NCBI RefSeq assembly: GCF_003945235.1 | Contig: NZ_RSDW01000001.1 | Span: 3,810,001-3,842,000, forward strand | DNA from: Edaphobacter aggregans | GTDB lineage: Bacteria; Acidobacteriota; Terriglobia; Terriglobales; Acidobacteriaceae | DNA length: 32,000 bases | Direction: 5' to 3' | Shown: in pieces, positions 2,966 to 25,113 of the stretch | Numbering within the stretch: the first letter of the stretch is position 1 | Layout of the letters: the number at the start of each line of letters is the position of its first letter | Translations under genes and position numbers: made by a program | Notes under the pieces: model-generated | Database searches by the model: none | What the model saw: the letters and a program-made list of their open reading frames with translations, nothing else | Told to the model about the DNA's origin: nothing

Positions 2966-2978
2966 AACGCCTCGTGTG

Positions 2979-3020
2979 AAACGGAAGGCAAACGATCGTT
3001 TGCCTTCCGTTTTTCTTTTA
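2979..3020 (+). terminator. Rho-independent terminator of the outer-membrane barrel gene
   Basis: Perfect 15-bp stem aaacggaaggcaaac (2979..2993) / gtttgccttccgttt (2998..3012) with loop gatc, followed by the T-rich run ttctttta. It begins 14 nt after the TAG at 2963..2965. Confidence 0.85.
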
Positions 3021-4144
3021 AAATTTCTGGAATCTCTCTGTCTGAGTTACACCGCCTGCCACGATATCGTATTTGAGTCTTCGTCGTTTAAACGGAATGC
3101 AATCCCGAAGTCAGCAATAAGCCGGTCAGACCAGATGTAGAACTATAGATATAGGGTGCTTTTACAAACAACGGGTCCGCAGTATGGTGAGGGCTGGTCC
3201 CGAAAGTAGTACCTCCGCTAACGGTGGGTGGCGGTTCAAAATCCAGCAAGAACAGGGCCCGATCTTAGAGAAATGTTGATCCGCCGCGCGATCGAAGATC
3301 GGTGCCGCAGCAGACTCAAGCGAGATCAATCGCTGATCAGCAAGCGGACGTATGGTTTCGAAGCTAGAGCTCTCGAAGAGCGCGATAATTGGGGTCACAC
3401 CCAACAAACTGGCTCGTATTCTCTGGACCTTATTTCCAGCGGGATTACCGCACGCCATTCAGTTGTGTTTGCCTAAAAAAACGGCCTGAAAAACGCCAAT
3501 GCTTGGAAAGTCCTTCCGCGCCGAACGGACTTAGATCCCCAATGCTGGACTGTTAAATCCGCCGAGGCAACGCGTATTTAGGCCATGGGAGTCATGGGTG
3601 TCTACAACTTGTGCGCCAGTGAATACACATGACGTGTCATACCCCGCAACTATTCGGCAAGTCATGATGAGTTGTGACAAAAGGTTTCCCAAAAAAAGTA
3701 TTTAAGACAAACACAGAGCATGGGACTTCATACATGCGCCATCAACACGTCCGTGGAAGCCATATACGTTGGGCTTAATTGGTTCCCACTAGTCGATTTT
3801 TCTCCCGAGCTCCTTTTTGAGATGTTTGCTCGGTGCTTTGCAAGTGACACATGACCGAGAACGGCCTACCGGCCATGAACGCAAGCACCAAAAATCTTCT
3901 AGTCGCTGAACGCGCAGAGGATCCATCGCAGAAGGGCGAATACTAGGTCGTTGTAATAGTCGAAAGGCTAGAAATGTTTGAATTCTTGAAGACTGCGCAA
4001 TACCTTGGTTCTTTTTTTCACCGGTTAGACCTATTCAAAAATGTTAAGAAGATATGGAACCTACGTCTATGCTTCTTCATAAATACCAGGTCTGTTCTAC
4101 TGCAGTCTTCCTTCCAAACCATATCGTGTGTGGAAGCAATTGGA

Positions 4145-4260
4145 ATGCCACGAACATCAGGAAAATCAGAGTCAATATTTAAAGTTTCTAATAGTTCAAA
4201 GATCCACGGTTATTTCTCATTGGCTTTGCTTGCCATAATGTCTTGTGGCATAGCGGGTGC
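4145..4260 (+). other. Predicted Sec signal peptide of the giant protein
   Basis: Basic/polar n-region, hydrophobic core FSLALLAIMSCGIAG, and a small-residue A-G-A site before QTPTT. The cleavage site is predicted by eye only. Confidence 0.6.
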
Positions 4261-7200
4261 CCAGACTCCGACTACTGTGAGCCTCTCAGTCACTCCAGTG
4301 ACCGCGTCCTACGGATCCGTAGTCCAGATGACGGCCACTGTGACTGCCGGTGCAACACATCCTTCAGCCGGGACAGTTACTTTTAGCGACACCTTCAATA
4401 CTGTTACGCACGTTCTTGGTACGATCCAGGTTCAGTCAGCAAACGGCAAAGCAATTTTGCAGCGAGAACTGGGTGGAATTGGAAATCATTCCATTACAGC
4501 CACTTTCAATGCTCCGAAGACCTATCAGTCGAGTTCCTCAACTGCGCAAATTGTGGCTATCACGGGGCAGTATCCGACGACGGCAAGTCTTTTACAGACC
4601 GGTGGTGCGACGGGAAATTGGTCACTCACAGCGACAATTACGGGAACTGGCAGCCTGTCACTGTCGCCAGGCGGGAATGTATCTCTTCTTGATACGTCCA
4701 ACGGAGGCTACCTTCTTGGCATGGCCGGCCTTGGAACGGGAACTATTGCACAGCAGACCGTTGCTGGCGCCGGATCACCCATTGGTGTCGGTACTAACCC
4801 GGAGAGCGTAGCAGTCGGAGACTTTAACGGCGATGGCTTCATCGATATTGCAGTTCTTAGCAAGAGCAACAATAACAACGTAAGCATTCTGTTAGGTGAC
4901 GGCACTGGCGCATTTACCGAATTGGGAACGAAGCTAAATGCCGGCAACAATCCCGTTGCTGTAGTGACCGGAGACTTTGATGGCGACGGCAATCTTGATC
5001 TTGCGGTAACAAATTCTACTTCCAATGCGATTAGCATTCTGCTCGGCAATGGTGATGGCACTTTCCGCAACAGAGCTACGTTTACCGTAACGACGCCCTA
5101 CGCCCTGGCGATAGGAGACTTCAATCGGGATGGTATACCCGATCTCGCAGTAGCCAATAGTGGCAACCAGGTGAACATCATGTTGGGCAACGGCTCCGGG
5201 GGCTTCACCCTATCCAGTGGATCGCCATTCACCGTGGGCAATGGCGTAGCCTCCATCGTGGTGGGAGATTTTAACCGCGATGGCAACCTCGATTTTGCGA
5301 CAGCCAACCAAACCGATAATTCGATTAGTGTCATGCAAGGGGATGGTACAGGCACTGTCTTTACATCCATTACAGGTGCGTCGCTTTCGCTGGGCGCCGG
5401 TACGACTCCCCTCTCTATTGTTACTGCGGATTTCGATGGGGATAACAAACTCGACCTCGCTGTAGCGGAATCCGGAAAGAACAGGATCGGTGTTCTTCGT
5501 GGCAACGGCGATGGAACCTTCGGGCTACAGGCAACGTACGCCACTGGGTCCACGCCCTATGCACTCGCTGTAGGAGACTTCAACGCAGATGGCAACTATG
5601 ACATTGGAGTAGCCAATTCAGGCGCGACAACCGCAAGCATTTTGCTTGGAAATGGCAACGGCACATTCCAATCTCAGACGACACCCTCTGTTGGGACGAA
5701 TCCTAGATCTGTGGCTGCTGCCGATTTTGACGGAGATGGCAACGTTGATCTCGCCGTTGCAAATTATGGCAGCAACAATGTGAGCATCCTGTTAAATCAG
5801 ATAACGGATACGGCGACGGCGTCGCTGACGATGATCTCGATCCCGGGTGGCGGCAACCATTTACTGGATGCGACGTACGCAGGCGACACGAACTTCAGCA
5901 CGAGTACGTCGAATAAGGTGTCGTTGGCTGCATCCCCAATAACAACGTCGACTCTTTTGAGCACCAGCTCAAACTCTCCCACCTACGGACAGCAGGTAGT
6001 TCTGACAGCGACGCTAAGCACCAGTATGGTCGGCACCCTCACGCCAGCCGGAGTGGATACGGTGACGTTCAAAGATGGCACGACGACCATCGGAACTTCG
6101 ACGCTCTCAAGTGGTGTAGCTACTTTGAATGTCAGCAATCTAAGCGTCGGTAGTCACACGATTACAGCTGTTTTCGGTGGAGATAGCAACTTCCAAACTA
6201 GTACATCCGCTCCGGTGAGCATCGTTGTAGGCACGGCGACACCTGTCATTACATGGGCTAACCCCGCACCCATCGCTTATGGGACGTTATTGTCGACCAC
6301 GCAGCTGAATGCGGTAGCCTCAGTAAACGGCATAACTGTCCCTGGCACTTACACCTACACGCCGGCTGCTGGAACTTTACTGGCGACCGGGTCGCCGCAT
6401 ACGCTTAGTGTTACGTTTAAACCCACTGCTTCAGGAAACTACACCACAGCAACGGCGAGCGTGTCGCTCACTGTCACCCAGGCAACGCCAATCATCTCCT
6501 GGGCTACTCCGTCGCCTATCGCTTTTGGAACGCCACTCAGCAATGTACAGCTGAATGCAACGGTAACGAGCACCACGGTGGTTCCTCTGTCCAGCTATTA
6601 CAACGTGAGCGGCATCATCACCGATGGCTCGACGGTAACGAACGGTGGATTTGACGCCAACGGCAACGACTACTCCGCCAACCAGCTCGGCACATCGATT
6701 AGCTGGAATGGTGTGACCTACACATTTGGCCCAGTGAACGCGAATGATGCTGTCAGCAACATCACGATCAACCTTCCACAGGGCCACTTCTCCAGCCTCA
6801 ACATGCTCGGCGCGCTCGTCAACAATGCGACGGCTTCGAATACCTTCACCGTTACTTACACCGATGGATCAACTAAGAATTTCACACAGAGCCTGAGCGA
6901 CTGGGTTTACCCGATGAACTACGCGGGCGAGTCGAATTTGAAATGCGATATCGCACGCGATCAATCTGGCGGAGCGCAGGACACCCACTCGACCTGCGTC
7001 TACGGATATCAGTTCGCGCTCGATAGCACAAAGATCGTGCAGAGCGTTACGCTTCCAAATACGCGCAACATCGTGATGCTTGCGATGGGGCTGACTTCTC
7101 CTCCCATCGCAGGGACGATGGTTTACAGCCCGGCCGCTGATACGGTTCCTGCCGTTGGTACAGATACTCTTTCGGTTACCTTCACCCCAACGGATACTGT

Positions 7201-10200
7201 CGACTACTCGAGCGCGTCGGCGACGGTGCAACTCGTCGTCAATCCAGCCACGGCCTACCTTAACTGGCCCACACCCGCGCCAATCAGTTACGGAACGCCA
7301 CTAAGCTCGACCCAACTTAATGCCAGCGCTGTAACGGCTACGGGCGTAATCCCCGTTCCAATCTCCACCTACTATCGGGTCAGCGCTTTCTTCACTGACG
7401 GAGTCCAGTACCAAGTTGGAGGATTCGACAATAATGGCAACGCGTACTCTGCTAATCAGCTTGGAACGACGATCGCATTCAACGGCATCAACTTTGCACT
7501 TGGGCCGCCAAGCGTTCCGAACTCGATCACGAGCACCACTGTTTTGCTTCCTCAAGGAAACTTTACAACCCTGTCTTTCATCGGAGCGGCTGCCAACAGC
7601 GCACAAACTAACCAGACCTTCACCGTCAACTATACCGATGGCACCTCCACAACCGCGCAGATCAGTCTCAGTAGTTGGACGGCGTCGAGTGGCTTTGCTG
7701 GCGAGACGATCGTTTCAACGACGACCAAAGAAGATACTTCCGGCGGATCTCAAGTAGTAGGCACTTACAACCTGTACGGCTATCAGATTGCTCTCAGTAA
7801 CACAAAAACAGTTAGCAGCATCACCCTTCCGAACAATCTCAATGTCGTCGTTCTGGGCATGGCCCTCAGCACATCATCATCTGCGACAAACCCAATTCCG
7901 GGGACCTACGCTTATACCCCCGCCAGCGGAACGATCCTTAGCTTGGGGACCCATACCCTATCGGTTACGTTTACCCCTACCGACACCAGCCACTACTCCG
8001 TTGCGACCAAAACGGTTTCCATCGTGGTGAACAAAGCTGTCCTAACAGTGACCGCAAATAGTCAAAGCGTGGTATACGGTACGTCACTGGCTCCTTACAC
8101 GTACGCCATCACCGGGTTCGTCAACGGTGATACCCAGACGAGCGCAACGACGGGTACCCCATCGTTGACAACAAACCCCACGACTCCCTCCAACGTAAAT
8201 ACTTACCCAATCACTGTGGCTGCGGGCACGCTCGCCTCCAGTAACTACAGCTTCACCTTTGTTAATGGATCTGTGGTCATTACGCCGGCCACCCTTACAC
8301 TCAACGCCAATAACGCCTCAAGGTTCTATAACACCGCCAACCCCACCTTTACCGGGACCATCTCCGGGGCCGTCAACGGGGACACCTTCACCGAGAGCTT
8401 CTCCACGACCGCCAACACCTCATCAGCTGTAGGCACCTATCCAATTACCCCTGCCGCTTCCGGCACCCACCTCTCCAACTACACGCTGGCGGTCAATCCC
8501 GGTACCTTGACCGTCACCCAGGCGACCCTGACGGTGACGGCAGGCAACGCCAGCCGCGCCTACGGAGCCCCCAACCCCGTGCTCACGGCCTCGGGCGCGG
8601 GAGCGTTGTCGAGCGACAGCTTCACCTACACGGCGACGACGGCGGCAGTGCCGTCTTCTCCGCTGGGAACATACTCGATCGTGCCCGCGGTGACCGGAGC
8701 TAATCTGGGGAACTACAACGTGGTGTATGTGGATGGCACCCTGACGGTGGGCCAGGCGACCCTGACGGTGACGGCAGGCAACGCCAGCCGCGCCTACGGA
8801 GCCCCCAACCCCGTGCTCACGGCCTCGGGCGCGGGAGCGTTGTCGAGCGACAGCTTCACCTACACGGCAACGACGGTGGCAGTGCCGTCTTCTCCGCTGG
8901 GAACATACTCGATCGTGCCTGCGGTGACCGGAGCTAATCTCGGGAACTACAACGTGGTGTATGTGGATGGCACCCTGACGGTGGGCCAGGCGACCCTGAC
9001 GGTGACGGCAGGCAACGCCAGCCGCGCCTACGGAGCCCCCAACCCCGTGCTCACGGCCTCGGGCGCGGGAGCGTTGTCGAGCGACAGCTTCACCTACACG
9101 GCGACGACGGCGGCAGTGCCGTCTTCTCCGCTGGGAACATACTCGATCGTGCCTGCGGTGACCGGGGCTAATCTCGGGAACTACAACGTGGTGTATGTGA
9201 ACGGCACCCTGACGGTGGGCCAGGCGACCCTGACGGTGACGGCAGGCAACGCCAGCCGCGCCTACGGAGCCCCCAACCCCGTGCTCACGGCATCGGGCAG
9301 CGGCGTGCAGAACGGCGACAGCTTCACCTACACGGCGACGACGGCGGCAGTGCCGTCTTCTCCGCTGGGAACATACTCGATCGTGCCCGCGGTGACCGGA
9401 GCTAATCTGGGGAACTACAACGTGGTGTATGTGAACGGCACCCTGACGGTGGGCCAGGCGACCCTGACGGTGACGGCAGGCAACGCCAGCCGTGCCTACG
9501 GAGCCCCCAACCCCGTGCTCACGGCCTCGGGCAGCGGCGTGCAGAACGGCGACAGCTTCACCTACACGGCGACGACGGCGGCAGTGCCGTCTTCTCCGCT
9601 GGGAACATACTCGATCGTGCCTGCGGTGACGGGAGCTAATCTGGCCAACTACAACGTGGTGTATGTGAACGGCACCCTGACGGTGGGCCAGGCGACCCTG
9701 ACGGTGACGGCAGGCAACGCCAGCCGCGCCTACGGAGCCCCCAACCCCGTGCTCACGGCCTCGGGCGCGGGAGCGTTGTCGAGCGACAGCTTCACCTACA
9801 CGGCGACGACGGCGGCAGTGCCGTCTTCTCCGCTGGGAACATACTCGATCGTGCCCGCGGTGACCGGAGCTAATCTGGCCAACTACAACGTGGTGTATGT
9901 GAACGGCACCCTGACGGTGGGCCAGGCGACCCTGACGGTGACGGCAGGCAACGCCAGCCGTGCCTACGGAGCCCCCAACCCCGTGCTCACGGCCTCGGGC
10001 GCGGGAGCGTTGTCGAGCGACAGCTTCACCTACACGGCGACGACGGCGGCAGTGCCGTCTTCTCCGCTGGGAACATACTCGATCGTGCCTGCGGTGACCG
10101 GGGCTAATCTCGGGAACTACAACGTGGTGTATGTGAACGGCACCCTGACGGTGGGCCAGGCGACCCTGACGGTGACGGCAGGCAACGCCAGCCGCGCCTA

Positions 10201-16200: not shown

Positions 16201-19200
16201 CTACAACGTGGTGTATGTGGATGGCACCCTGACGGTCGGCCAGGCGACCCTGACGGTGACGGCAGGCAACGCCAGCCGTGCCTACGGAGCCCCCAACCCC
16301 GTGCTCACGGCCTCGGGCGCGGGAGCGTTGTCGAGCGACAGCTTCACCTACACGGCGACGACGGCGGCAGTGCCGTCTTCTCCGCTGGGAACGTACTCGA
16401 TCGTGCCCGCGGTGACCGGAGCTAATCTGGCCAACTACAACGTGGTGTATGTGAACGGCACCCTGACGGTGGGCCAGGCGACCCTGACGGTGACGGCAGG
16501 CAACGCCAGCCGTGCCTACGGAGCCCCCAACCCCGTGCTCACGGCCTCGGGCGCGGGAGCGTTGTCGAGCGACAGCTTCACCTACACGGCGACGACGGCG
16601 GCAGTGCCGTCTTCTCCGCTGGGAACATACTCGATCGTGCCTGCGGTGACCGGGGCTAATCTCGGGAACTACAACGTGGTGTATGTGAACGGCACCCTGA
16701 CGGTGGGCCAGGCGACCCTGACGGTGACGGCAGGCAACGCCAGCCGCGCCTACGGAGCCCCCAACCCCGTGCTCACGGCCTCGGGCAGCGGCGTGCAGAA
16801 CGGCGACAGCTTCACCTACACGGCGACGACGGCGGCAGTGCCGTCTTCTCCGCTGGGAACATACTCGATCGTGCCTGCGGTGACGGGAGCTAATCTGGCC
16901 AACTACAACGTGGTGTATGTGGATGGCACCCTGACGGTGGGCCAGGCGACCCTGACGGTGACGGCAGGCAACGCCAGCCGTGCCTACGGAGCCCCCAACC
17001 CCGTGCTCACGGCCTCGGGCGCGGGAGCGTTGTCGAGCGACAGCTTCACCTACACGGCAACGACGGCGGCAGTGCCGTCTTCTCCGCTGGGAACGTACTC
17101 GATCGTGCCTGCGGTGACCGGAGCTAATCTGGCCAACTACAACGTGGTGTATGTGAACGGCACCCTGACGGTGGGCCAGGCGACCCTGACGGTGACGGCA
17201 GGCAACGCCAGCCGTGCCTACGGAGCCCCCAACCCCGTGCTCACGGCCTCGGGCGCGGGAGCGTTGTCGAGCGACAGCTTCACCTACACGGCGACGACGG
17301 CGGCAGTGCCGTCTTCTCCGCTGGGAACATACTCGATCGTGCCCGCGGTGACGGGAGCTAATCTGGGGAACTACAACGTGGTGTATGTGAACGGCACCCT
17401 GACGGTGGGCCAGGCGACCCTGACGGTGACGGCAGGCAACGCCAGCCGTGCCTACGGAGCCCCCAACCCCGTGCTCACGGCCTCGGGCGCGGGAGCGTTG
17501 TCGAGCGACAGCTTCACCTACACGGCGACGACGGCGGCAGTGCCGTCTTCTCCGCTGGGAACATACTCGATCGTGCCTGCGGTGACGGGAGCTAATCTGG
17601 CCAACTACAACGTGGTGTATGTGGATGGCACCCTGACGGTGGGCCAGGCGACCCTGACGGTGACGGCAGGCAACGCCAGCCGCGCCTACGGAGCCCCCAA
17701 CCCCGTGCTCACGGCCTCGGGCGCGGGAGCGTTGTCGAGCGACAGCTTCACCTACACGGCAACGACGGTGGCAGTGCCGTCTTCTCCGCTGGGAACATAC
17801 TCGATCGTGCCTGCGGTGACGGGAGCTAATCTGGCCAACTACAACGTGGTGTATGTGGATGGCACCCTGACGGTGGGCCAGGCGACCCTGACGGTGACGG
17901 CAGGCAACGCCAGCCGTGCCTACGGAGCCCCCAACCCCGTGCTCACGGCCTCGGGCGCGGGAGCGTTGTCGAGCGACAGCTTCACCTACACGGCAACGAC
18001 GGCGGCAGTGCCGTCTTCTCCGCTGGGAACGTACTCGATCGTGCCCGCGGTGACCGGAGCTAATCTGGCCAACTACAACGTGGTGTATGTGAACGGCACC
18101 CTGACGGTGGGCCAGGCGACCCTGACGGTGACGGCAGGCAACGCCAGCCGTGCCTACGGAGCCCCCAACCCCGTGCTCACGGCCTCGGGCGCGGGAGCGT
18201 TGTCGAGCGACAGCTTCACCTACACGGCAACGACGGCGGCAGTGCCGTCTTCTCCGCTGGGAACGTACTCGATCGTGCCCGCGGTGACCGGAGCTAATCT
18301 GGCCAACTACAACGTGGTGTATGTGAACGGCACCCTGACGGTGGGCCAGGCGACCCTGACGGTGACGGCAGGCAACGCCAGCCGTGCCTACGGAGCCCCC
18401 AACCCCGTGCTCACGGCCTCGGGCAGCGGCGTGCAGAACGGCGACAGCTTCACCTACACGGCGACGACGGCGGCAGTGCCGTCTTCTCCGCTGGGAACAT
18501 ACTCGATCGTGCCCGCGGTGACCGGAGCTAATCTGGGGAACTACAACGTGGTGTATGTGGATGGCACCCTGACGGTGGGCCAGGCGACCCTGACGGTGAC
18601 GGCAGGCAACGCCAGCCGCGCCTACGGAGCCCCCAACCCCGTGCTCACGGCCTCGGGCGCGGGAGCGTTGTCGAGCGACAGCTTCACCTACACGGCGACG
18701 ACGGCGGCAGTGCCGTCTTCTCCGCTGGGAACATACTCGATCGTGCCTGCAGTGACCGGGGCTAATCTCGGGAACTACAACGTGGTGTATGTGGATGGCA
18801 CCCTGACGGTCGGCCAGGCGACCCTGACGGTGACGGCAGGCAACGCCAGCCGTGCCTACGGAGCCCCCAACCCCGTGCTCACGGCCTCGGGCGCGGGAGC
18901 GTTGTCGAGCGACAGCTTCACCTACACGGCGACGACGGCGGCAGTGCCGTCTTCTCCGCTGGGAACATACTCGATCGTGCCTGCAGTGACCGGGGCTAAT
19001 CTCGGGAACTACAACGTGGTGTATGTGGATGGCACCCTGACGGTCGGCCAGGCGACCCTGACGGTGACGGCAGGCAACGCCAGCCGTGCCTACGGAGCCC
19101 CCAACCCCGTGCTCACGGCCTCGGGCGCGGGAGCGTTGTCGAGCGACAGCTTCACCTACACGGCGACGACGGCGGCAGTGCCGTCTTCTCCGCTGGGAAC

Positions 19201-22200
19201 ATACTCGATCGTGCCCGCGGTGACCGGAGCTAATCTGGCCAACTACAACGTGGTGTATGTGAACGGCACCCTGACGGTGGGCCAGGCGACCCTGACGGTG
19301 ACGGCAGGCAACGCCAGCCGTGCCTACGGAGCCCCCAACCCCGTGCTCACGGCCTCGGGCGCGGGAGCGTTGTCGAGCGACAGCTTCACCTACACGGCGA
19401 CGACGGCGGCAGTGCCGTCTTCTCCGCTGGGAACATACTCGATCGTGCCTGCGGTGACCGGGGCTAATCTCGGGAACTACAACGTGGTGTATGTGAACGG
19501 CACCCTGACGGTGGGCCAGGCGACCCTGACGGTGACGGCAGGCAACGCCAGCCGCGCCTACGGAGCCCCCAACCCCGTGCTCACGGCATCGGGCAGCGGC
19601 GTGCAGAACGGCGACAGCTTCACCTACACGGCAACGACGGCGGCAGTGCCGTCTTCTCCGCTGGGAACATACTCGATCGTGCCTGCAGTGACCGGGGCTA
19701 ATCTCGGGAACTACAACGTGGTGTATGTGGATGGCACCCTGACGGTCGGCCAGGCGACCCTGACGGTGACGGCAGGCAACGCCAGCCGTGCCTACGGAGC
19801 CCCCAACCCCGTGCTCACGGCCTCGGGCAGCGGCGTGCAGAACGGCGACAGCTTCACCTACACGGCGACGACGGCGGCAGTGCCGTCTTCTCCGCTGGGA
19901 ACATACTCGATCGTGCCTGCGGTGACCGGGGCTAATCTCGGGAACTACAACGTGGTGTATGTGAACGGCACCCTGACGGTGGGCCAGGCGACCCTGACGG
20001 TGACGGCAGGCAACGCCAGCCGCGCCTACGGAGCCCCCAACCCCGTGCTCACGGCCTCGGGCGCGGGAGCGTTGTCGAGCGACAGCTTCACCTACACGGC
20101 GACGACGGCGGCAGTGCCGTCTTCTCCGCTGGGAACGTACTCGATCGTGCCTGCAGTGACCGGGGCTAATCTTGGGAACTACAACGTGGTGTATGTGGAT
20201 GGCACCCTGACGGTCGGCCAGGCGACCCTGACGGTGACGGCAGGCAACGCCAGCCGTGCCTACGGAGCCCCCAACCCCGTGCTCACGGCCTCGGGCAGCG
20301 GCGTGCAGAACGGCGACAGCTTCACCTACACGGCGACGACGGCGGCAGTGCCGTCTTCTCCGCTGGGAACATACTCGATCGTGCCTGCGGTGACCGGGGC
20401 TAATCTCGGGAACTACAACGTGGTGTATGTGAACGGCACCCTGACGGTGGGCCAGGCGACCCTGACGGTGACGGCAGGCAACGCCAGCCGCGCCTACGGA
20501 GCCCCCAACCCCGTGCTCACGGCCTCGGGCGCGGGAGCGTTGTCGAGCGACAGCTTCACCTACACGGCGACGACGGCGGCAGTGCCGTCTTCTCCGCTGG
20601 GAACATACTCGATCGTGCCTGCAGTGACCGGGGCTAATCTCGGGAACTACAACGTGGTGTATGTGGATGGCACCCTGACGGTCGGCCAGGCGACCCTGAC
20701 GGTGACGGCAGGCAACGCCAGCCGTGCCTACGGAGCCCCCAACCCCGTGCTCACGGCCTCGGGCAGCGGCGTGCAGAACGGCGACAGCTTCACCTACACG
20801 GCAACGACGGCGGCAGTGCCGTCTTCTCCGCTGGGAACATACTCGATCGTGCCTGGGGTGACGGGAGCTAATCTGGCCAACTACAACGTGGTGTATGTGG
20901 ATGGCACCCTGACGGTCGGCCAGGCGACCCTGACGGTGACGGCAGGCAACGCCAGCCGTGCCTACGGAGCCCCCAACCCCGTGCTCACGGCCTCGGGCGC
21001 GGGAGCGTTGTCGAGCGACAGCTTCACCTACACGGCGACGACGGCGGCAGTGCCGTCTTCTCCGCTGGGAACATACTCGATCGTGCCTGCGGTGACCGGG
21101 GCTAATCTCGGGAACTACAACGTGGTGTATGTGAACGGCACCCTGACGGTGGGCCAGGCGACCCTGACGGTGACGGCAGGCAACGCCAGCCGCGCCTACG
21201 GAGCCCCCAACCCCGTGCTCACGGCCTCGGGCGCGGGAGCGTTGTCGAGCGACAGCTTCACCTACACGGCGACGACGGCGGCAGTGCCGTCTTCTCCGCT
21301 GGGAACGTACTCGATCGTGCCTGCAGTGACCGGGGCTAATCTTGGGAACTACAACGTGGTGTATGTGGATGGCACCCTGACGGTCGGCCAGGCGACCCTG
21401 ACGGTGACGGCGGGCAACGCCAACCGCGTCTACGGAGCCCCCAACCCTGTGCTGACGGCATCGGGCAGCGGCGTGCAGAACAGCGACAGCTTCACCTATA
21501 CGGCAACGACCACGGCAGTGCAGTCTTCTCCGGTGGGAACATACTCGATCGTGCCTGCAGTGACGGGAGCGAACCTGGCCAACTACAACGTGGTGTATGT
21601 GGATGGCACCCTGACGGTAGGCCAGGCGACCCTGACAGTGACGGCAGGCAACGCCAGCCGCGCCTACGGAGCCCCGAACCCTGTGCTCTCGGCATCGGGC
21701 AGCGGCGTGCAGAACGGCGACAGCTTCACCTACACGGCAACGACCACGGCAGTCCCGTCTTCTCCGGTGGGAACGTACTCGATCGTGCCCGCAGTAACCG
21801 GAGCTAATCTGGCGAACTACAACGTGGTCTATGTGGATGGCACCCTGACGGTAGGCCAGGCGACCCTGACGGTGACGTCAGGCAACGCCAGCCGCGCCTA
21901 CGGAGCCCCCAACCCTGTGCTGACGGCATCGGGCAGCGGCGTGCAGAACAGCGACTCCTTCACCTACACGGCAACGACCACGGCAGTGCCGTCTTCCGCG
22001 ATAGGGAACTACTCGATCGTGCCTGCAGTGACGGGGGCTAATCTGGCCAACTACAACGTGGTCTATGTGGATGGCACCCTGACGGTAGGTCAGGCGACTC
22101 TGACGGTGACGGCAGGCAACGCCAGCCGCGCCTACGGGGCGGCCAACCCTGTGCTCACGGCATCGGGCAGCGGCGTGCAGAACAGCGACAGCTTCACCTA

Positions 22201-23860
22201 TACGGCAACGACCGTGGCAGTCCCATCTTCTCCGGTGGGAACGTACTCGATCGTGCCCGCAGTAACCGGAGCTAATCTGGCGAACTACAACGTGGTGTAT
22301 GTGGACGGCACCCTGACGGTAGGCCAGGCAACCCCGATTATCACTTGGGCGCCACCAGCGACGATTAGCTACGACACTCCTTTATCTGCCACTCAGCTGG
22401 ATGCAACTGCTTCGGTGCCTGGTACTTTCACCTATACACCTACCGCAGGCACGATACTTTCGGCAGGTTTGAATCAACTCTCGGTCAGCTTCATTCCCAC
22501 TGACGCAGTCAATTACACAACGCAAACAGCTACCGTTAACCTCACGGTCACTCCTTCCGCCCCCGTCATCAATTGGGCTGATCCGGCATCGATTATCTAC
22601 GGTACGGCACTCAGCTCTACCCAGCTTGACGCGACCGCCGTTCAGCCCAACGGTGTTGGGGCTGTGGCCGGTACCTTCGTCTACAGTCCGGCCGTAGGAA
22701 CTATCCTAAGCACTGGCATCCACCCGATTTCAGTCACCTTCACTCCAACTGATTCCTCCGACTACACCACTCTCATCAAGACGGTGTCTATCAACGTCCT
22801 ACCGGCAACTCTGATTCTTTCTGCGAACGATGCCACTAAAATCTATGGCGCGCCGAACCCATCGTTCACCGGTACCGTCACGGGAGTTCAGAATGGGGAC
22901 GTCTTTACCGAGAGCTTCACAACCTTAGCCTCAATGCTTTCCAACACTGGATCGTATCCGATCGTTCCGAGCGTCTCAGGGCTCAACCTGCCCTTTTACC
23001 TTCAGACGGTGAACAATGGCACACTTACCATCACAAAGGCATCGGTTACCTCGACTCTTACGCTAAGCCCCGTCAGCGTTGCCTATGGCCTCCCAGTAAA
23101 TATGACGTTAGCTTTGCAATCGACGACCAGCGGTACGCCGACAGGAACTGTCAGCTTCTTTGACAATGGCAATCTGATCGGGACTTCACCTGTCACATCT
23201 GGTGTCGCGACCTTCTCCACAACGTCGCTTCTGGTTGGAAACCATGTCATCACCACCCTCTATAGCGGCGACATGAACTTCAACGCGCAAACCGTCGCAG
23301 CCACTTCCGGGTCTAACACGGTTGCCATCACTCCGCTCGACTTCAGCTTCCAACTGACGAGCTTGCCGACCCTCCACGGAGTCTATGGAACTTCCGGCGA
23401 GTACACCTTCCACTTAGCGCCAATAGGCGGTAGCTATCCCGGAACAGTACAATTCACGATCGACGGAAGTCGCGGACCGATCTTGGCCACCTATACGTTC
23501 TCGGAAAATTCTCTCCCCATGCACGGAGGACCTGCAGACATCACACTAAACGTGGCTACCCGTAAGCTCGCTGGGATGGAACACCCTGTTGATTTATCCA
23601 GCCGTCTAGGATCTATAGCCCTTAGCCTTTTCCTGATTCCGCTTGCGTCGGCGCGACGTCTCCGCAAATCGGGACGCAAACTGGCTCGAGCCATCAGCAT
23701 GTTCGCCTTACTCTTACTCACACTTGGAGGTATCGCGTCGCTTACCGGATGCGGAAGCGGCTACCGAAGTATCGATAATCCAATTGTGGTGATTGCGACC
23801 AGTAACGGCGTTCAACACACGATTACCATCGACTACCACATCGATGCGTCAGCTCAGTAA
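4145..23860 (+). CDS. Giant secreted multidomain surface/adhesin-like protein (~6,571 aa): signal peptide, Ig-like domains, 7x FG-GAP/VCBS propeller, 2 lectin-like modules, 62 MBG-type domains, C-terminal hydrophobic module
   Basis: A single uninterrupted frame runs 3974..23860. The preferred start is ATG 4145, with GGAAG at 4132..4136 (8-nt spacer). It is followed by a Sec-type signal peptide, MPRTSGKSESIFKVSNSSKIHGYFSLALLAIMSCGIAGA|QT. The 57 codons upstream of 4145 are AT-rich, Phe/Lys/Leu-rich and carry no signal. Domain calls rest on motifs read from the translation (see the sub-features). Confidence 0.9.
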   Translation: MPRTSGKSESIFKVSNSSKIHGYFSLALLAIMSCGIAGAQTPTTVSLSVTPVTASYGSVVQMTATVTAGATHPSAGTVTFSDTFNTVTHVLGTIQVQSANGKAILQRELGGIGNHSITATFNAPKTYQSSSSTAQIVAITGQYPTTASLLQTGGATGNWSLTATITGTGSLSLSPGGNVSLLDTSNGGYLLGMAGLGTGTIAQQTVAGAGSPIGVGTNPESVAVGDFNGDGFIDIAVLSKSNNNNVSILLGDGTGAFTELGTKLNAGNNPVAVVTGDFDGDGNLDLAVTNSTSNAISILLGNGDGTFRNRATFTVTTPYALAIGDFNRDGIPDLAVANSGNQVNIMLGNGSGGFTLSSGSPFTVGNGVASIVVGDFNRDGNLDFATANQTDNSISVMQGDGTGTVFTSITGASLSLGAGTTPLSIVTADFDGDNKLDLAVAESGKNRIGVLRGNGDGTFGLQATYATGSTPYALAVGDFNADGNYDIGVANSGATTASILLGNGNGTFQSQTTPSVGTNPRSVAAADFDGDGNVDLAVANYGSNNVSILLNQITDTATASLTMISIPGGGNHLLDATYAGDTNFSTSTSNKVSLAASPITTSTLLSTSSNSPTYGQQVVLTATLSTSMVGTLTPAGVDTVTFKDGTTTIGTSTLSSGVATLNVSNLSVGSHTITAVFGGDSNFQTSTSAPVSIVVGTATPVITWANPAPIAYGTLLSTTQLNAVASVNGITVPGTYTYTPAAGTLLATGSPHTLSVTFKPTASGNYTTATASVSLTVTQATPIISWATPSPIAFGTPLSNVQLNATVTSTTVVPLSSYYNVSGIITDGSTVTNGGFDANGNDYSANQLGTSISWNGVTYTFGPVNANDAVSNITINLPQGHFSSLNMLGALVNNATASNTFTVTYTDGSTKNFTQSLSDWVYPMNYAGESNLKCDIARDQSGGAQDTHSTCVYGYQFALDSTKIVQSVTLPNTRNIVMLAMGLTSPPIAGTMVYSPAADTVPAVGTDTLSVTFTPTDTVDYSSASATVQLVVNPATAYLNWPTPAPISYGTPLSSTQLNASAVTATGVIPVPISTYYRVSAFFTDGVQYQVGGFDNNGNAYSANQLGTTIAFNGINFALGPPSVPNSITSTTVLLPQGNFTTLSFIGAAANSAQTNQTFTVNYTDGTSTTAQISLSSWTASSGFAGETIVSTTTKEDTSGGSQVVGTYNLYGYQIALSNTKTVSSITLPNNLNVVVLGMALSTSSSATNPIPGTYAYTPASGTILSLGTHTLSVTFTPTDTSHYSVATKTVSIVVNKAVLTVTANSQSVVYGTSLAPYTYAITGFVNGDTQTSATTGTPSLTTNPTTPSNVNTYPITVAAGTLASSNYSFTFVNGSVVITPATLTLNANNASRFYNTANPTFTGTISGAVNGDTFTESFSTTANTSSAVGTYPITPAASGTHLSNYTLAVNPGTLTVTQATLTVTAGNASRAYGAPNPVLTASGAGALSSDSFTYTATTAAVPSSPLGTYSIVPAVTGANLGNYNVVYVDGTLTVGQATLTVTAGNASRAYGAPNPVLTASGAGALSSDSFTYTATTVAVPSSPLGTYSIVPAVTGANLGNYNVVYVDGTLTVGQATLTVTAGNASRAYGAPNPVLTASGAGALSSDSFTYTATTAAVPSSPLGTYSIVPAVTGANLGNYNVVYVNGTLTVGQATLTVTAGNASRAYGAPNPVLTASGSGVQNGDSFTYTATTAAVPSSPLGTYSIVPAVTGANLGNYNVVYVNGTLTVGQATLTVTAGNASRAYGAPNPVLTASGSGVQNGDSFTYTATTAAVPSSPLGTYSIVPAVTGANLANYNVVYVNGTLTVGQATLTVTAGNASRAYGAPNPVLTASGAGALSSDSFTYTATTAAVPSSPLGTYSIVPAVTGANLANYNVVYVNGTLTVGQATLTVTAGNASRAYGAPNPVLTASGAGALSSDSFTYTATTAAVPSSPLGTYSIVPAVTGANLGNYNVVYVNGTLTVGQATLTVTAGNASRAYGAPNPVLTASGAGALSSDSFTYTATTAAVPSSPLGTYSIVPAVTGANLGNYNVVYVDGTLTVGQATLTVTAGNASRAYGAPNPVLTASGAGALSSDSFTYTATTAAVPSSPLGTYSIVPAVTGANLANYNVVYVDGTLTVGQATLTVTAGNASRAYGAPNPVLTASGAGALSSDSFTYTATTAAVPSSPLGTYSIVPAVTGANLGNYNVVYVNGTLTVGQATLTVTAGNASRAYGAPNPVLTASGSGVQNGDSFTYTATTAAVPSSPLGTYSIVPAVTGANLANYNVVYVNGTLTVGQATLTVTAGNASRAYGAPNPVLTASGSGVQNGDSFTYTATTAAVPSSPLGTYSIVPAVTGANLGNYNVVYVDGTLTVGQATLTVTAGNASRAYGAPNPVLTASGAGALSSDSFTYTATTAAVPSSPLGTYSIVPAVTGANLGNYNVVYVDGTLTVGQATLTVTSGNASRAYGAPNPVLTASGSGVQNGDSFTYTATTAAVPSSPLGTYSIVPAVTGANLGNYNVVYVDGTLTVGQATLTVTAGNASRAYGAPNPVLTASGAGALSSDSFTYTATTAAVPSSPLGTYSIVPAVTGANLANYNVVYVNGTLTVGQATLTVTAGNASRAYGAPNPVLTASGAGALSSDSFTYTATTAAVPSSPLGTYSIVPAVTGANLANYNVVYVNGTLTVGQATLTVTAGNASRAYGAPNPVLTASGSGVQNGDSFTYTATTAAVPSSPLGTYSIVPAVTGANLGNYNVVYVDGTLTVGQATLTVTAGNASRAYGAPNPVLTASGSGVQNGDSFTYTATTVAVPSSPLGTYSIVPAVTGANLGNYNVVYVDGTLTVGQATLTVTAGNASRAYGAPNPVLTASGAGALSSDSFTYTATTAAVPSSPLGTYSIVPAVTGANLGNYNVVYVDGTLTVGQATLTVTAGNASRAYGAPNPVLTASGAGALSSDSFTYTATTAAVPSSPLGTYSIVPAVTGANLANYNVVYVNGTLTVGQATLTVTAGNASRAYGAPNPVLTASGSGVQNGDSFTYTATTAAVPSSPLGTYSIVPAVTGANLANYNVVYVDGTLTVGQATLTVTAGNASRAYGAPNPVLTASGAGALSSDSFTYTATTAAVPSSPLGTYSIVPAVTGANLGNYNVVYVDGTLTVGQATLTVTAGNASRAYGAPNPVLTASGAGALSSDSFTYTATTAAVPSSPLGTYSIVPAVTGANLGNYNVVYVDGTLTVGQATLTVTSGNASRAYGAPNPVLTASGAGALSSDSFTYTATTAAVPSSPLGTYSIVPAVTGANLGNYNVVYVNGTLTVGQATLTVTAGNASRAYGAPNPVLTASGSGVQNGDSFTYTATTAAVPSSPLGTYSIVPAVTGANLANYNVVYVNGTLTVGQATLTVTAGNASRAYGAPNPVLTASGAGALSSDSFTYTATTAAVPSSPLGTYSIVPAVTGANLANYNVVYVNGTLTVGQATLTVTAGNASRAYGAPNPVLTASGAGALSSDSFTYTATTAAVPSSPLGTYSIVPAVTGANLANYNVVYVNGTLTVGQATLTVTAGNASRAYGAPNPVLTASGSGVQNGDSFTYTATTAAVPSSPLGTYSIVPAVTGANLGNYNVVYVDGTLTVGQATLTVTAGNASRAYGAPNPVLTASGSGVQNGDSFTYTATTAAVPSSPLGTYSIVPAVTGANLGNYNVVYVDGTLTVGQATLTVTAGNASRAYGAPNPVLTASGAGALSSDSFTYTATTAAVPSSPLGTYSIVPAVTGANLGNYNVVYVDGTLTVGQATLTVTAGNASRAYGAPNPVLTASGAGALSSDSFTYTATTAAVPSSPLGTYSIVPAVTGANLANYNVVYVNGTLTVGQATLTVTAGNASRAYGAPNPVLTASGAGALSSDSFTYTATTAAVPSSPLGTYSIVPAVTGANLGNYNVVYVNGTLTVGQATLTVTAGNASRAYGAPNPVLTASGAGALSSDSFTYTATTAAVPSSPLGTYSIVPAVTGANLGNYNVVYVDGTLTVGQATLTVTAGNASRAYGAPNPVLTASGAGALSSDSFTYTATTAAVPSSPLGTYSIVPAVTGANLANYNVVYVNGTLTVGQATLTVTAGNASRAYGAPNPVLTASGAGALSSDSFTYTATTAAVPSSPLGTYSIVPAVTGANLGNYNVVYVNGTLTVGQATLTVTAGNASRAYGAPNPVLTASGSGVQNGDSFTYTATTAAVPSSPLGTYSIVPAVTGANLANYNVVYVDGTLTVGQATLTVTAGNASRAYGAPNPVLTASGAGALSSDSFTYTATTAAVPSSPLGTYSIVPAVTGANLANYNVVYVNGTLTVGQATLTVTAGNASRAYGAPNPVLTASGAGALSSDSFTYTATTAAVPSSPLGTYSIVPAVTGANLGNYNVVYVNGTLTVGQATLTVTAGNASRAYGAPNPVLTASGAGALSSDSFTYTATTAAVPSSPLGTYSIVPAVTGANLANYNVVYVDGTLTVGQATLTVTAGNASRAYGAPNPVLTASGAGALSSDSFTYTATTVAVPSSPLGTYSIVPAVTGANLANYNVVYVDGTLTVGQATLTVTAGNASRAYGAPNPVLTASGAGALSSDSFTYTATTAAVPSSPLGTYSIVPAVTGANLANYNVVYVNGTLTVGQATLTVTAGNASRAYGAPNPVLTASGAGALSSDSFTYTATTAAVPSSPLGTYSIVPAVTGANLANYNVVYVNGTLTVGQATLTVTAGNASRAYGAPNPVLTASGSGVQNGDSFTYTATTAAVPSSPLGTYSIVPAVTGANLGNYNVVYVDGTLTVGQATLTVTAGNASRAYGAPNPVLTASGAGALSSDSFTYTATTAAVPSSPLGTYSIVPAVTGANLGNYNVVYVDGTLTVGQATLTVTAGNASRAYGAPNPVLTASGAGALSSDSFTYTATTAAVPSSPLGTYSIVPAVTGANLGNYNVVYVDGTLTVGQATLTVTAGNASRAYGAPNPVLTASGAGALSSDSFTYTATTAAVPSSPLGTYSIVPAVTGANLANYNVVYVNGTLTVGQATLTVTAGNASRAYGAPNPVLTASGAGALSSDSFTYTATTAAVPSSPLGTYSIVPAVTGANLGNYNVVYVNGTLTVGQATLTVTAGNASRAYGAPNPVLTASGSGVQNGDSFTYTATTAAVPSSPLGTYSIVPAVTGANLGNYNVVYVDGTLTVGQATLTVTAGNASRAYGAPNPVLTASGSGVQNGDSFTYTATTAAVPSSPLGTYSIVPAVTGANLGNYNVVYVNGTLTVGQATLTVTAGNASRAYGAPNPVLTASGAGALSSDSFTYTATTAAVPSSPLGTYSIVPAVTGANLGNYNVVYVDGTLTVGQATLTVTAGNASRAYGAPNPVLTASGSGVQNGDSFTYTATTAAVPSSPLGTYSIVPAVTGANLGNYNVVYVNGTLTVGQATLTVTAGNASRAYGAPNPVLTASGAGALSSDSFTYTATTAAVPSSPLGTYSIVPAVTGANLGNYNVVYVDGTLTVGQATLTVTAGNASRAYGAPNPVLTASGSGVQNGDSFTYTATTAAVPSSPLGTYSIVPGVTGANLANYNVVYVDGTLTVGQATLTVTAGNASRAYGAPNPVLTASGAGALSSDSFTYTATTAAVPSSPLGTYSIVPAVTGANLGNYNVVYVNGTLTVGQATLTVTAGNASRAYGAPNPVLTASGAGALSSDSFTYTATTAAVPSSPLGTYSIVPAVTGANLGNYNVVYVDGTLTVGQATLTVTAGNANRVYGAPNPVLTASGSGVQNSDSFTYTATTTAVQSSPVGTYSIVPAVTGANLANYNVVYVDGTLTVGQATLTVTAGNASRAYGAPNPVLSASGSGVQNGDSFTYTATTTAVPSSPVGTYSIVPAVTGANLANYNVVYVDGTLTVGQATLTVTSGNASRAYGAPNPVLTASGSGVQNSDSFTYTATTTAVPSSAIGNYSIVPAVTGANLANYNVVYVDGTLTVGQATLTVTAGNASRAYGAANPVLTASGSGVQNSDSFTYTATTVAVPSSPVGTYSIVPAVTGANLANYNVVYVDGTLTVGQATPIITWAPPATISYDTPLSATQLDATASVPGTFTYTPTAGTILSAGLNQLSVSFIPTDAVNYTTQTATVNLTVTPSAPVINWADPASIIYGTALSSTQLDATAVQPNGVGAVAGTFVYSPAVGTILSTGIHPISVTFTPTDSSDYTTLIKTVSINVLPATLILSANDATKIYGAPNPSFTGTVTGVQNGDVFTESFTTLASMLSNTGSYPIVPSVSGLNLPFYLQTVNNGTLTITKASVTSTLTLSPVSVAYGLPVNMTLALQSTTSGTPTGTVSFFDNGNLIGTSPVTSGVATFSTTSLLVGNHVITTLYSGDMNFNAQTVAATSGSNTVAITPLDFSFQLTSLPTLHGVYGTSGEYTFHLAPIGGSYPGTVQFTIDGSRGPILATYTFSENSLPMHGGPADITLNVATRKLAGMEHPVDLSSRLGSIALSLFLIPLASARRLRKSGRKLARAISMFALLLLTLGGIASLTGCGSGYRSIDNPIVVIATSNGVQHTITIDYHIDASAQ
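4760..5800 (+). other. Seven FG-GAP/VCBS-type repeats (predicted 7-bladed integrin-alpha-like beta-propeller)
   Basis: Seven spaced copies of the motif [VI]xxGDF[ND]xDGxxD[LI]A[VT]: VAVGDFNGDGFIDIAV, VVTGDFDGDGNLDLAV, LAIGDFNRDGIPDLAV, IVVGDFNRDGNLDFAT, IVTADFDGDNKLDLAV, LAVGDFNADGNYDIGV, VAAADFDGDGNVDLAV. Most copies are followed by a short S[IV]-containing segment and a G[ND]G[DNST]G[TAG]F motif (e.g. NNVSILLGDGTGAF, NAISILLGNGDGTF, ASILLGNGNGTF). Confidence 0.8.
6578..7106 (+). other. Lectin-like / putative carbohydrate-binding module, copy 1, nested inside an Ig-like domain
   Basis: A ~175-aa insert (VVPLSSYYNVSGIITDG...GGFDANGNDYSANQLGTSISWNGVTYTFGP...INLPQGHFSSLNMLGALVNN...FTVTYTDGSTKNFTQSLSDW...YGYQFALDSTKIVQSVTLPNTRNIVMLAMGL). 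It sits between the ...QLNATV half and the GTMVYSPA...LSVTFTPTD half of an ITW...YGTPLS...QLNA-type Ig-like domain. The function is guessed from resemblance to a module I recall at the termini of secreted glycoside hydrolases. Confidence 0.45.
7343..7895 (+). other. Lectin-like / putative carbohydrate-binding module, copy 2, nested inside the next Ig-like domain
   Basis: A diverged paralogue of copy 1 with the same motif order: GVIPVPISTYYRVSAFFTDG...GGFDNNGNAYSANQLGTTIAFNGINFALGP...VLLPQGNFTTLSFIGAAANS...FTVNYTDGTSTTAQISLSSW...YGYQIALSNTKTVSSITLPNNLNVVVLGMAL. It is again flanked by split halves of an Ig-like domain. Confidence 0.45.
8036..8518 (+). other. Two diverged MBG-type domains preceding the tandem array
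   Basis: Domain one is LTVTANSQSVVYGTSLAPYTYAITGFVNGDTQ...NTYPITVAAGTLASSNYSFTFVNGSVVITPA. Domain two is LTLNANNASRFYNTANPTFTGTISGAVNGDTFTESF...VGTYPITPAASGTHLSNYTLAVNPGTLTVT. Both follow the MBG (YGX-type) pattern xYGxxNP...G.VNGD...GxYxI...NY...GTLT[IV]. Confidence 0.65.
8519..21388 (+). repeat. Coding tandem repeat: 55 near-identical units of exactly 234 bp (78 aa, MBG-type domain)
   Basis: Consensus unit: QATLTVTAGNASRAYGAPNPVLTASG[AGALSS/SGVQNG]DSFTYTATTAAVPSSPLGTYSIVPAVTGANL[G/A]NYNVVYV[D/N]GTLTVG. Unit starts that I checked (8519, 8753, 11561, 13901, 21389) all fall on 8519+234n. No indels were seen. Units differ only at about a dozen recurrent dimorphic nucleotides plus one 18-nt cassette. 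Confidence 0.95.
21389..22324 (+). repeat. Four more-diverged 234-bp units (units 56-59) at the 3' edge of the same array
   Basis: The period and phase are unchanged (8519+59x234 = 22325, the first codon of QATPIITW). These units carry private substitutions (NRVYGAPNP, LSASG, TTAVQSSPVG, SSAIGNY, GAANP, VQNSDS) and many synonymous changes. All four have the SGVQN-type cassette. Confidence 0.9.
22805..23040 (+). other. Isolated diverged MBG-type domain downstream of the array
   Basis: ATLILSANDATKIYGAPNPSFTGTVTGVQNGDVFTESFTTLASMLSNTGSYPIVPSVSGLNLPFYLQTVNNGTLTITKA. It is separated from the array by two ITW...YxTxLSxTQLDA-type Ig-like domains (22325..22800). Confidence 0.6.
23333..23857 (+). 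other. C-terminal module: split beta-domain interrupted by a hydrophobic helix, a basic cluster and a lipoprotein-signal-like segment
   Basis: Order of elements: DFSFQLTS...ITLNVATRKLAGMEHPVDLSSR; hydrophobic LGSIALSLFLIPLASA (23606..23653); basic RRLRKSGRKLAR (23654..23689); hydrophobic AISMFALLLLTLGGIAS plus lipobox-like LTGC (Cys codon 23750..23752); then GSGYRSIDNPIVVIATSNGVQHTITIDYHIDASAQ and the stop. Confidence 0.6.
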
Positions 23861-23871
23861 TAGGCACAGAT

Positions 23872-23901
23872 GTGGCGAGGGCGGCAGGGGCCCCTCGCCA
23901 C
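23872..23901 (+). terminator. Possible terminator hairpin after the giant gene (no U-tract)
   Basis: 10-bp GC-rich stem gtggcgaggg (23872..23881) / ccctcgccac (23892..23901) with a 10-nt loop, 12 nt after the TAA. No T-run follows, so intrinsic-terminator function is uncertain. Confidence 0.3.
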
Positions 23902-25032: not shown

Positions 25033-25113
25033 CGTTTTGGTGACTCCAAGTTAGGGCGAGTAATGATCGCTGCTCGCACCTACTAAAGATAGACGCTAAG
25101 AGCGGAGGTTAGG

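Follow-up and report, generated by a model that had tools for sequence, protein, structure and literature searches.

The giant adhesins LapA, SiiE and MpIBP, RTX proteins handled by type I secretion systems (T1SS), combine giant size with a stalk of tandem beta-domains and a terminal ligand-binding region. A different layout, an N-terminal signal joined to a C-terminal sorting tag, is found in cargo of the type IX secretion system (T9SS) such as SprB, in PEP-CTERM proteins and in LPXTG proteins. Little is understood of how diderms from beyond the well-studied phyla bring very large proteins exported by Sec to display. Acidobacteriota are diderms and rank among the most abundant soil bacteria, and in 2009 Ward et al. 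reportedly found large, repeat-rich proteins bearing a Sec signal to be typical of soil Acidobacteria genomes; to our knowledge, a C-terminal tail of the type treated here was not defined in that work. We have analyzed 32,000 nucleotides of the genome of Edaphobacter aggregans (contig NZ_RSDW01000001.1, positions 3,810,001 to 3,842,000, hereafter the window), which contain a gene of 6,571 codons plus stop (4145..23860, forward strand, as are all features of this gene given below). The encoded protein, likely an adhesin, ends in a two-helix tail, and the locus provides a clean, full-length example of a C-terminal tail that appears to re-use a lipoprotein-type signal inside an immunoglobulin (Ig) fold.

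By analogy of layout, the closest experimentally studied counterpart of this tail is the MYXO-CTERM tag of Myxococcus with its myxosortase (MrtX). MYXO-CTERM proteins likewise carry an N-terminal signal and a C-terminal tag, for which Cys lipidation (with Lgt as candidate enzyme), cleavage by the myxosortase and surface display through type II secretion (T2SS) have been proposed; their tag has no defined lipobox, and its topology is inverted relative to that of Lgt and LspA substrates (PMC11980579). Like them, the window protein has a Sec signal and comes from a diderm host, and its C-terminal tag likewise contains an invariant Cys along with a transmembrane helix and an Arg-rich segment predicted to be cytoplasmic. 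However, whereas the MYXO-CTERM Cys precedes a single helix, the tail in the window possesses a second helix predicted to re-invert the chain, its Cys is preceded by a canonical lipobox, and in tails of this type the ~35-50 residues that follow the Cys belong to an Ig fold, unlike in MYXO-CTERM. The MYXO-CTERM model TIGR03901 does not match the protein, in which the Cys sits after the second helix, and no sign of a myxosortase was seen.

Signals of several other secretion and sorting systems were not recognized either. A motif scan of the protein revealed no GGxGxD, LPxTG or PEP motif, and Pfam and NCBIfam scans of residues 1-1752 and of the last 953 residues found no model for an autotransporter, a two-partner secretion (TPS) domain or an intimin-type barrel, the interior consisting of MBG units. 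The C-terminal domain of T9SS cargo gave no match on the last 209 residues even at E <= 10, nor in NCBIfam, and the PEP-CTERM model did not match: a helix followed by an Arg cluster exists, but ~70 more residues come after it. The absence of RTX, autotransporter and TPS features noted in the initial annotation, which was made from the sequence alone, is thus confirmed. With regard to T1SS adhesins, the window protein differs by its signal peptide, by the lack of any RTX model match, by the absence of genes for an ATP-binding cassette (ABC) transporter, a membrane fusion protein (MFP) or TolC in the flanks, and by a head located at the N-terminus and an anchor at the C-terminus. The inverted polarity that had been proposed for this protein therefore holds relative to T1SS adhesins, while other Sec-dependent surface proteins share its layout.

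The C-terminal tail and its family

The terminal module begins at TPLDFSFQ with the N-terminal five to six strands of an Ig-like domain of the PapD/ASH type, as predicted by AlphaFold2 (AF2) (23330..23593). It continues with helix 1 (23594..23653, aa 6484-6503, LSSRLGSIALSLFLIPLASA), a putative stop-transfer segment containing a family-invariant Pro, with a basic loop (RRLRKSGRKLAR, 23654..23689) that the charge scan predicts to be cytoplasmic, and with helix 2 (23690..23752), which resembles a lipoprotein signal peptide in that a 20-residue uncharged stretch leads to the lipobox L-T-G-C. Net charge reaches +7 across the basic loop and into the beginning of helix 2. The lipobox Cys (23750-23752) is residue 6536 of 6571, and the remaining 35 residues (GSGYRSIDNPIVVIATSNGVQHTITIDYHIDASAQ, 23753..23857) form a predicted beta-hairpin corresponding to the last two strands of the split domain. 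The C-terminal hydrophobic module previously reported is hence real and consists of two hydrophobic segments. The same elements recur in fixed order in the alignment of homologues: an Ig-like domain opening with (T)PLDFS, a hydrophobic segment …LFL[IL]PL… with the invariant Pro, an Arg/Lys cluster, a second hydrophobic segment, an invariant Cys and a short end of the form …Y/F-P-I-x-V-T-A-T-S-N-G-V-Q-H-x-V-T-[LV]….

An AF2 model of the last 185 residues, computed from a 60-sequence alignment, reached an overall predicted local distance difference test score (pLDDT) of 85. In the numbering of this 185-residue tail, strands occupy positions 13-86 (pLDDT about 95), helices positions 98-117 and 124-148, and the terminal hairpin positions 157-180, with strands at 157-167 and 170-180 (pLDDT 97). 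Foldseek aligned the model with ASH/PapD-like Ig domains over ~170-180 columns, covering both halves of the domain. Independently of this, 11 ordinary Ig domains of the same type that are not split served to build a hidden Markov model (HMM), whose match to the tail is broken in two: its positions 2-70 lie ahead of helix 1 and its positions 77-95 behind the Cys; once the hairpin had been excised in silico, the same HMM matched the tail as one contiguous domain. The Foldseek span and the two-piece match argue for the insertion of a ~70-residue membrane hairpin in one loop of the fold and, as judged from model and profiles, the terminal module is an Ig-like domain interrupted in this way.

When the terminal 953 residues were scanned against Pfam and NCBIfam at E <= 0.01, the tail remained unmatched. 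Scanned alone against NCBIfam at E <= 1, it matched NF058595.1 ('invert_tail') over residues 80-176 and profile positions 3-108 of 113, with E 0.0037 and 17.6 bits, a score below the curated cut-off of 37 bits. NF058595 is a recently catalogued, computationally defined family whose full name is 'lipo-invert putative C-terminal anchoring domain-containing protein'. Homologues retrieved through the tail profile score 48-74 bits on it (P0064, P0128, P0206, P0261 and P0300 at 49-74 bits), among them a Terracidiphilus choice-of-anchor D protein and a CSLREA protein assigned to Planctomycetota. In the alignment of the window tail with 59 homologues (A5), 60/60 sequences match NF058595 at E <= 0.01, and hhalign related the window subfamily (A2) to the typical subfamily (A6) with 99.0% probability (E 5.9e-18). 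The layout agrees as well, since NF058595 proteins display at their extreme C-terminus a helix, an Arg/Lys cluster, a hydrophobic stretch, a lipobox Cys and a short beta-hairpin, all of which are present in the window. From these sequence relationships, the window tail is recognizable as a divergent member of a curated, putative anchoring family, sub-threshold by direct score. The undescribed anchoring route suggested in the initial annotation is therefore not upheld as far as the anchor is concerned; a sorting signal recognized by HMM, named there as evidence that would speak against such a route, is present in substance through family homology, albeit with a direct score under the cut-off.

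The spread of the tail was addressed by an exhaustive profile search over 1.84 billion representative proteins, which returned 8,502 proteins at E <= 1e-10, a count inflated by the Ig portion of the profile. Among the best 150 matches, well over half carry the full-length tail at the exact C-terminus, on proteins of 180 to 2,425 residues with differing N-terminal architectures. This survey reveals many otherwise different proteins ending in the module, and a portable tag for sorting or anchoring would be expected to behave in this way. NF058595 members are indeed borne by varied secreted multi-Ig proteins. Our literature search found zero papers mentioning the lipo-invert tail, which appears to exist as a database model only.

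Within the family, the window subfamily is distinguished by a longer basic loop (RRLRKSGRKLAR), by a lipobox L/M-T-G-C versus V-S-S-C in typical members, by the lack of the Gly/Ser tether that most NF058595 members have after the Cys, and by an end of 35 residues after the Cys versus a family median of 46, with an extra HIDxSxQ end. The typical, Terracidiphilus-type subfamily (A6, e.g., P0064 and L039-L045) has a near-invariant Cys in helix 1 (…LPLACGL…) and a conserved Cys pair in its Ig part, both of which are missing from the window subfamily, which hints at subfamily-specific processing.

These features bear on a sortase-like reading, in which helix 1 and the Arg cluster would form a tripartite sorting signal of the PEP-CTERM, MYXO-CTERM or PGF-CTERM type, cut by a dedicated intramembrane enzyme, encoded elsewhere, that would release or transfer the protein. 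The invariant Pro, conserved Leu residues and the Arg-rich cluster that follows helix 1 would suit such a signal, as would the near-invariant Cys at the start of helix 1 in the Terracidiphilus-type subfamily (PLACGL) and the presence among tail-bearers of choice-of-anchor D domains, which by definition are found with various sorting tags. We nevertheless hold it to be very unlikely: no PEP-CTERM, MYXO-CTERM or other sorting-signal model and no PEP or LPxTG motif matched, helix 1 of the window protein lacks a Cys, the tails have no conserved candidate enzyme as a neighbor, and the lipobox helix with its hairpin would be left unexplained.

The resemblance of helix 2 to a lipoprotein signal was examined in 229 tails, the only selection being for a Cys preceded by a hydrophobic stretch and, ahead of this, by a basic cluster. 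The residue at position -1 to the Cys is small in 229/229 (Ser 160, Gly 46, Ala 23), S, T, A or G predominate at position -2 and V, L, M, I or A at position -3, while G, S, T, A and P make up 81% of residues +1 to +6. The loop preceding the second helix is positively charged (+4 to +7 net), and the length of the uncharged stretch that leads up to the Cys varies little around a median of 17 residues (the window tail has 20), pointing to the h-region of a signal peptide rather than to a full membrane span. As in classical lipoprotein signals recognized by Lgt, LspA and the Lol pathway, a positive n-region, an uncharged h-region of ~17 residues and a lipobox are present, and the Gly/Ser-rich stretch usual after the Cys of lipoproteins is seen in most members of the tail family. 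The window tail itself contains an n-region, an h-region and LTGC, which fits [LVI][ASTVI][GAS]C. The placement, however, is not that of a lipoprotein: here the signal is preceded by ~6,500 residues and by a stop-transfer helix, and the 'mature lipoprotein' would amount to the 35-residue hairpin only.

Could this tail be a plain helical-hairpin anchor of the inner membrane, with a Cys conserved for other reasons (interface packing or redox) and no processing by Lgt or LspA? The fibre would then be periplasmic or envelope-associated, or it would get to the cell surface in some unrelated way. The two long helices of the AF2 model, a basic loop in agreement with the positive-inside rule, the absence of a processing-enzyme gene nearby and the missing Gly/Ser tether of the window subfamily are all compatible with it. 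On the other hand, Ser, Gly or Ala at -1 in 100% of tails, lipobox-like residues at -3 and -2 and a tight 17-residue stretch are hard to account for without a constraint of the signal peptidase II type, and the name that the NCBI curators gave to their model carries the lipoprotein-signal reading too. We consider such a plain anchor unlikely, though not far-fetched.

Proposed anchoring of the fibre

From sequence and structural model combined, we favor as probable that the product of the gene is a giant adhesin resembling a fibre, which is exported by Sec, held in the inner membrane by its hairpin and lipidated on Cys6536 by an Lgt-type enzyme, with possible cleavage by LspA. Export would begin, as the sequence suggests, with passage through SecYEG and cleavage of the N-terminal signal. 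Helix 1 would then halt translocation, the Arg/Lys loop would stay in the cytoplasm and helix 2 would re-enter the membrane in an N-in, C-out orientation; this arrangement is supported by hydrophobicity, by the positive-inside rule and by the AF2 model, a basic loop between two hydrophobic segments being expected to make helix 1 stop transfer and helix 2 re-export the last 35 residues. Back on the periplasmic side, these residues would complete the Ig fold as a hairpin. In this inverted orientation, the lipobox, whose conservation is the basis for this step, would be presented to the general machinery, presumably Lgt and LspA, in the orientation it has in an N-terminal precursor, and we propose that Cys6536 is diacylglyceryl-modified and possibly cleaved. 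The two-helix tail would thus restore the canonical Lgt/LspA topology, which is presumably the meaning of 'lipo-invert'. The fibre would finally be tethered at its C-terminus by the hairpin, the lipid or both, with its head distal; no dedicated neighboring export genes would be needed for anchoring.

Several observations weigh against this proposal. Cleavage by LspA would leave the lipid on the 35-residue hairpin and not on the giant chain, which would keep both helices and be attached to the lipopeptide solely via the completed Ig fold; for the anchoring logic to hold, cleavage must hence not occur or additional steps must follow. There is little point in a 62-domain stalk fixed to the inner membrane if it does not extend to the cell surface, and no route is visible here. 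To this are added the score of the window tail under the NF058595 cut-off, the tether missing from its subfamily and a literature search that found zero experiments on lipidation or cleavage of any member of the tail family. Regarding passage through the outer membrane, nothing in the window accounts for it. The initial annotation had regarded both crossing and anchoring as unexplained; of the two, anchoring is largely explained by the lipo-invert tail.

The fate of the lipid after cleavage is what a two-cut variant would address. Following lipidation of Cys6536 by Lgt and a cut by LspA before the Cys, a second membrane protease would remove the hairpin upstream of helix 1, so that the fibre would be held non-covalently by strand complementation, the two beta-strands of the 35-residue lipopeptide completing the last Ig domain. 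The Lol pathway, T2SS or the small barrel encoded beside relatives of the gene (see below) could then move the fibre to the outer membrane or to the surface. We judge this scheme distinctly unlikely; if it is true, ordinary N-terminal lipoprotein machinery would have been turned into a maker of C-terminally lipid-anchored protein. As for the lipidation that we favor, its occurrence would add a class to the known C-terminal anchoring signals and account for a large class of unannotated 'Ig-like repeat' proteins; failing this, the window protein would be a giant repeat adhesin of the ordinary sort, anchored in the membrane by two helices.

Gene, head and stalk

A single uninterrupted open reading frame (ORF) spans 3974-23860 on the forward strand, so that 57 in-frame codons precede the ATG at 4145. 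These codons, open to an ATG at 3974, have a low GC content and no signal-peptide character, and the start was placed at 4145 because a signal-peptide-like sequence begins there. The Sec signal peptide, read from the sequence as of the signal peptidase I (SPI) type (aa 1-39, 4145..4261), comprises a basic n-region (MPRTSGKSESIFKVSNSSK) and a hydrophobic h-region (IHGYFSLALLAIMSCGIAGA) followed by the predicted cleavage site A-G-A|Q; complete family members possess likewise signals of the A-x-A|Q type. Only four cysteines occur in the 6,571 residues: Cys34 in the signal peptide (4244-4246), Cys934 and Cys951 in the first jelly-roll module described below (6944-6946 and 6995-6997) and Cys6536 in the lipobox. 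An N-terminal lipobox at Cys34 (IMSC) was considered and judged unlikely, Met at -2 being non-canonical and complete family members having SPI-type signals.

After an N-terminal Ig-like region of the Big_3_5 type (4271..4756), a seven-blade FG-GAP beta-propeller is predicted by Pfam (4757..5800). Exactly seven Ca-loop-like DxNxDGxxD motifs, in the form D[FL][DN]xD[GN]xxD, are regularly spaced at aa 226, 277, 325, 375, 429, 478 and 527, which fits seven blades. The Pfam matches to FG-GAP (E 7.6e-32, 109 bits), FG-GAP_3 (E 6.1e-55, 184 bits), Big_3_5 (101 bits) and MBG_2 (233 and 303 bits) all exceed the gathering scores. Big_3_5 and related Ig-like domains follow (5801..6574, Pfam and motif scan), then two beta-jelly-roll modules (6575..7090 and 7349..7864), paralogues with 46% identity (alignment A7). 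Module 1, in which a disulfide between Cys934 and Cys951 is likely, forms a beta-sandwich in AF2 (pLDDT 96.4). Its best structural neighbor in the PDB, and the sole strong one, is the AziU2/U3 pair of azinomycin biosynthesis (template modeling score 0.83); carbohydrate-binding modules match it weakly. Pfam and PDB sequence searches with the jelly-roll modules gave zero matches. Among their 76 homologues, some bear the label alpha-mannosidase, given by the Joint Genome Institute (JGI), and in some the module is accompanied by CHB_HEX_C, Fn3_assoc or ricin domains. The modules look like an unnamed family of accessory domains, for which a 'lectin-like' function is plausible but unproven.

The stalk starts with two divergent MBG_2 domains of the YGX type (8036..8521), followed by 59 tandem MBG_2 units of 234 bp or 78 residues (8522..22327). 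Arranged head-to-tail, the 59 units include 41 DNA variants and 18 protein variants, with a mean pairwise identity of 94.4%, their variation being a mosaic of a few cassettes (AGALSSD/SGVQNGD, G/A and D/N). Beyond the array come two Ig-like modules of the ITWAPP and INWADP types (22328..22804, sequence and Pfam), a third divergent MBG_2 domain, the 62nd in total (22805..23035, Pfam), and a Big_3_5 Ig-like domain (23036..23329, Pfam) that adjoins the split domain of the tail.

Most of the architecture proposed in the initial annotation is hence retained: a single giant gene with an intact ORF, a Sec signal peptide, consistent with the signals of complete family members, a seven-blade FG-GAP propeller with Ca-loop-like motifs, a 62-domain stalk (59 plus 3 MBG domains) and Ig-like domains. 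Of the two lectin-like modules, the paralogous domains themselves are real, and their lectin function is putative.

In view of its 13.8-kb array of near-identical repeats, the gene could be suspected of being mis-assembled, a pseudogene or unexpressed. The 94-95% identity across 59 copies invites this suspicion, homologues in short-read metagenomes are mostly broken at the repeats, and the copy number could still be off. Nevertheless, the reading frame is open through 19.7 kb, all 58 unit-to-unit spacings equal exactly 78 residues, 27/59 variable sites (roughly half) fall in codons whose amino acid is invariant, the unit variants form an ordered mosaic and not collapsed identical copies, and relatives in complete genomes have ORFs of more than 3,500 residues. 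An artefact of this kind is scarcely credible.

Upstream, a strong terminator-like hairpin (2978..3013, forward strand) lies 3' of a barrel gene. The giant gene would therefore form its own transcription unit, with ~1.1 kb free of genes before its start. This gene-free stretch (3014-4144) has a lower GC content (about 49-51%) and contains one weak promoter-like site. An Rfam scan of the window gave zero matches to RNA families.

Relatives and gene neighborhood

With the C-terminal 209 residues as query, a scan in which each species was represented by one genome identified 43 related loci, all in Acidobacteriaceae (Tunturiibacter, Edaphobacter, Granulicella, Terracidiphilus and uncultured metagenome-assembled genomes), the closest being 89% identical; with such a distribution, the assumption of a diderm envelope is reasonable. 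In complete genomes, the tail ends very long ORFs, exceeding 3,500 residues within the fetched flank. The neighbors in the window encode a TonB-dependent-type barrel (running off the left edge), a LolA-like protein, a histidine kinase, an S9 peptidase, RecX and an anthrone-oxygenase-like protein. As noted from the outset, there is no export partner in the window: annotation of the flanks revealed neither ABC/MFP/TolC, TpsB, exosortase or sortase genes nor other secretion-system genes. None of the flanking genes is conserved beside related tails, the genes shared downstream of relatives (gatC/gatA and a sugar transferase) are of housekeeping or exopolysaccharide type, and gene-context look-ups of distant tail-bearing members showed no common partner.

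In all 35 of the 35 Edaphobacter, Tunturiibacter and Granulicella loci carrying the tail subfamily of the window, a gene for a small outer-membrane barrel (OMP_b-brl, PF13505) lies immediately downstream on the strand of the giant gene (L004-L038, about 10625-11270 of the 20-kb loci, e.g., L029:10625-11251). It encodes ~200 residues with a signal peptide and ends in …AYRFH. This pairing is striking and, together with the absence of any known outer-membrane translocation signal in the giant protein, would suit a wholly undescribed route of export or anchoring, as first proposed, possibly using this barrel of the 8-strand type. However, tblastn and HMM searches found no such gene anywhere in the window (including 23861-32000), and it is also missing beside the giant gene in L003, the closest relative of the window, and beside more distant tail-bearing genes; it cannot therefore be a general requirement of the tail. 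We know of no channel for a polypeptide in a barrel of about 170 residues and, with anchoring already accounted for by the curated tail, we deem a wholly undescribed route highly improbable.

Similarity between the window and L003 ends 60 bp past the stop codon (23919). Just past the giant gene (~23900-24100), the GC skew changes from about -0.2 to values of +0.2 to +0.48, in coincidence with the end of this similarity, and remains strongly positive over 24000-32000 whatever the gene strand; strong skews are also seen in the loci of relatives. This flip could be a replication-skew switch or a rearrangement breakpoint that parted the giant gene from its usual barrel neighbor.

Two neighbors were considered as partners of the giant gene and rejected. 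The upstream TonB-dependent-type barrel, as an Oar-like secretion partner, belongs to a type that is frequent in such genomes, is separated by the strong terminator and is found near only 7 of the related loci. The downstream, convergent gene (24109-25032, reverse strand) encodes a secreted 307-residue protein with a match to LolA_like, a family of outer-membrane lipoprotein sorting, at 26.4 bits versus a cut-off of 30 bits. Such a match beside a gene with a lipobox tail is suggestive, but it is sub-threshold in Pfam, has no counterpart in NCBIfam and is not conserved beside tails elsewhere.

Further downstream, short tandem repeats with periods of 6, 11, 17 and 18 bp (e.g., GCAACGGCAAAAGCAACC x4.8) occupy 26573-27051, between the histidine kinase and S9 peptidase genes. 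The latter (27133-30267, forward strand) encodes a PD40 and Peptidase_S9 protein with a Gly-rich insert near its N-terminus; a long linker rich in Pro, Ala and Val leads to an additional domain of ~110 residues at its C-terminus, for which no family matched.

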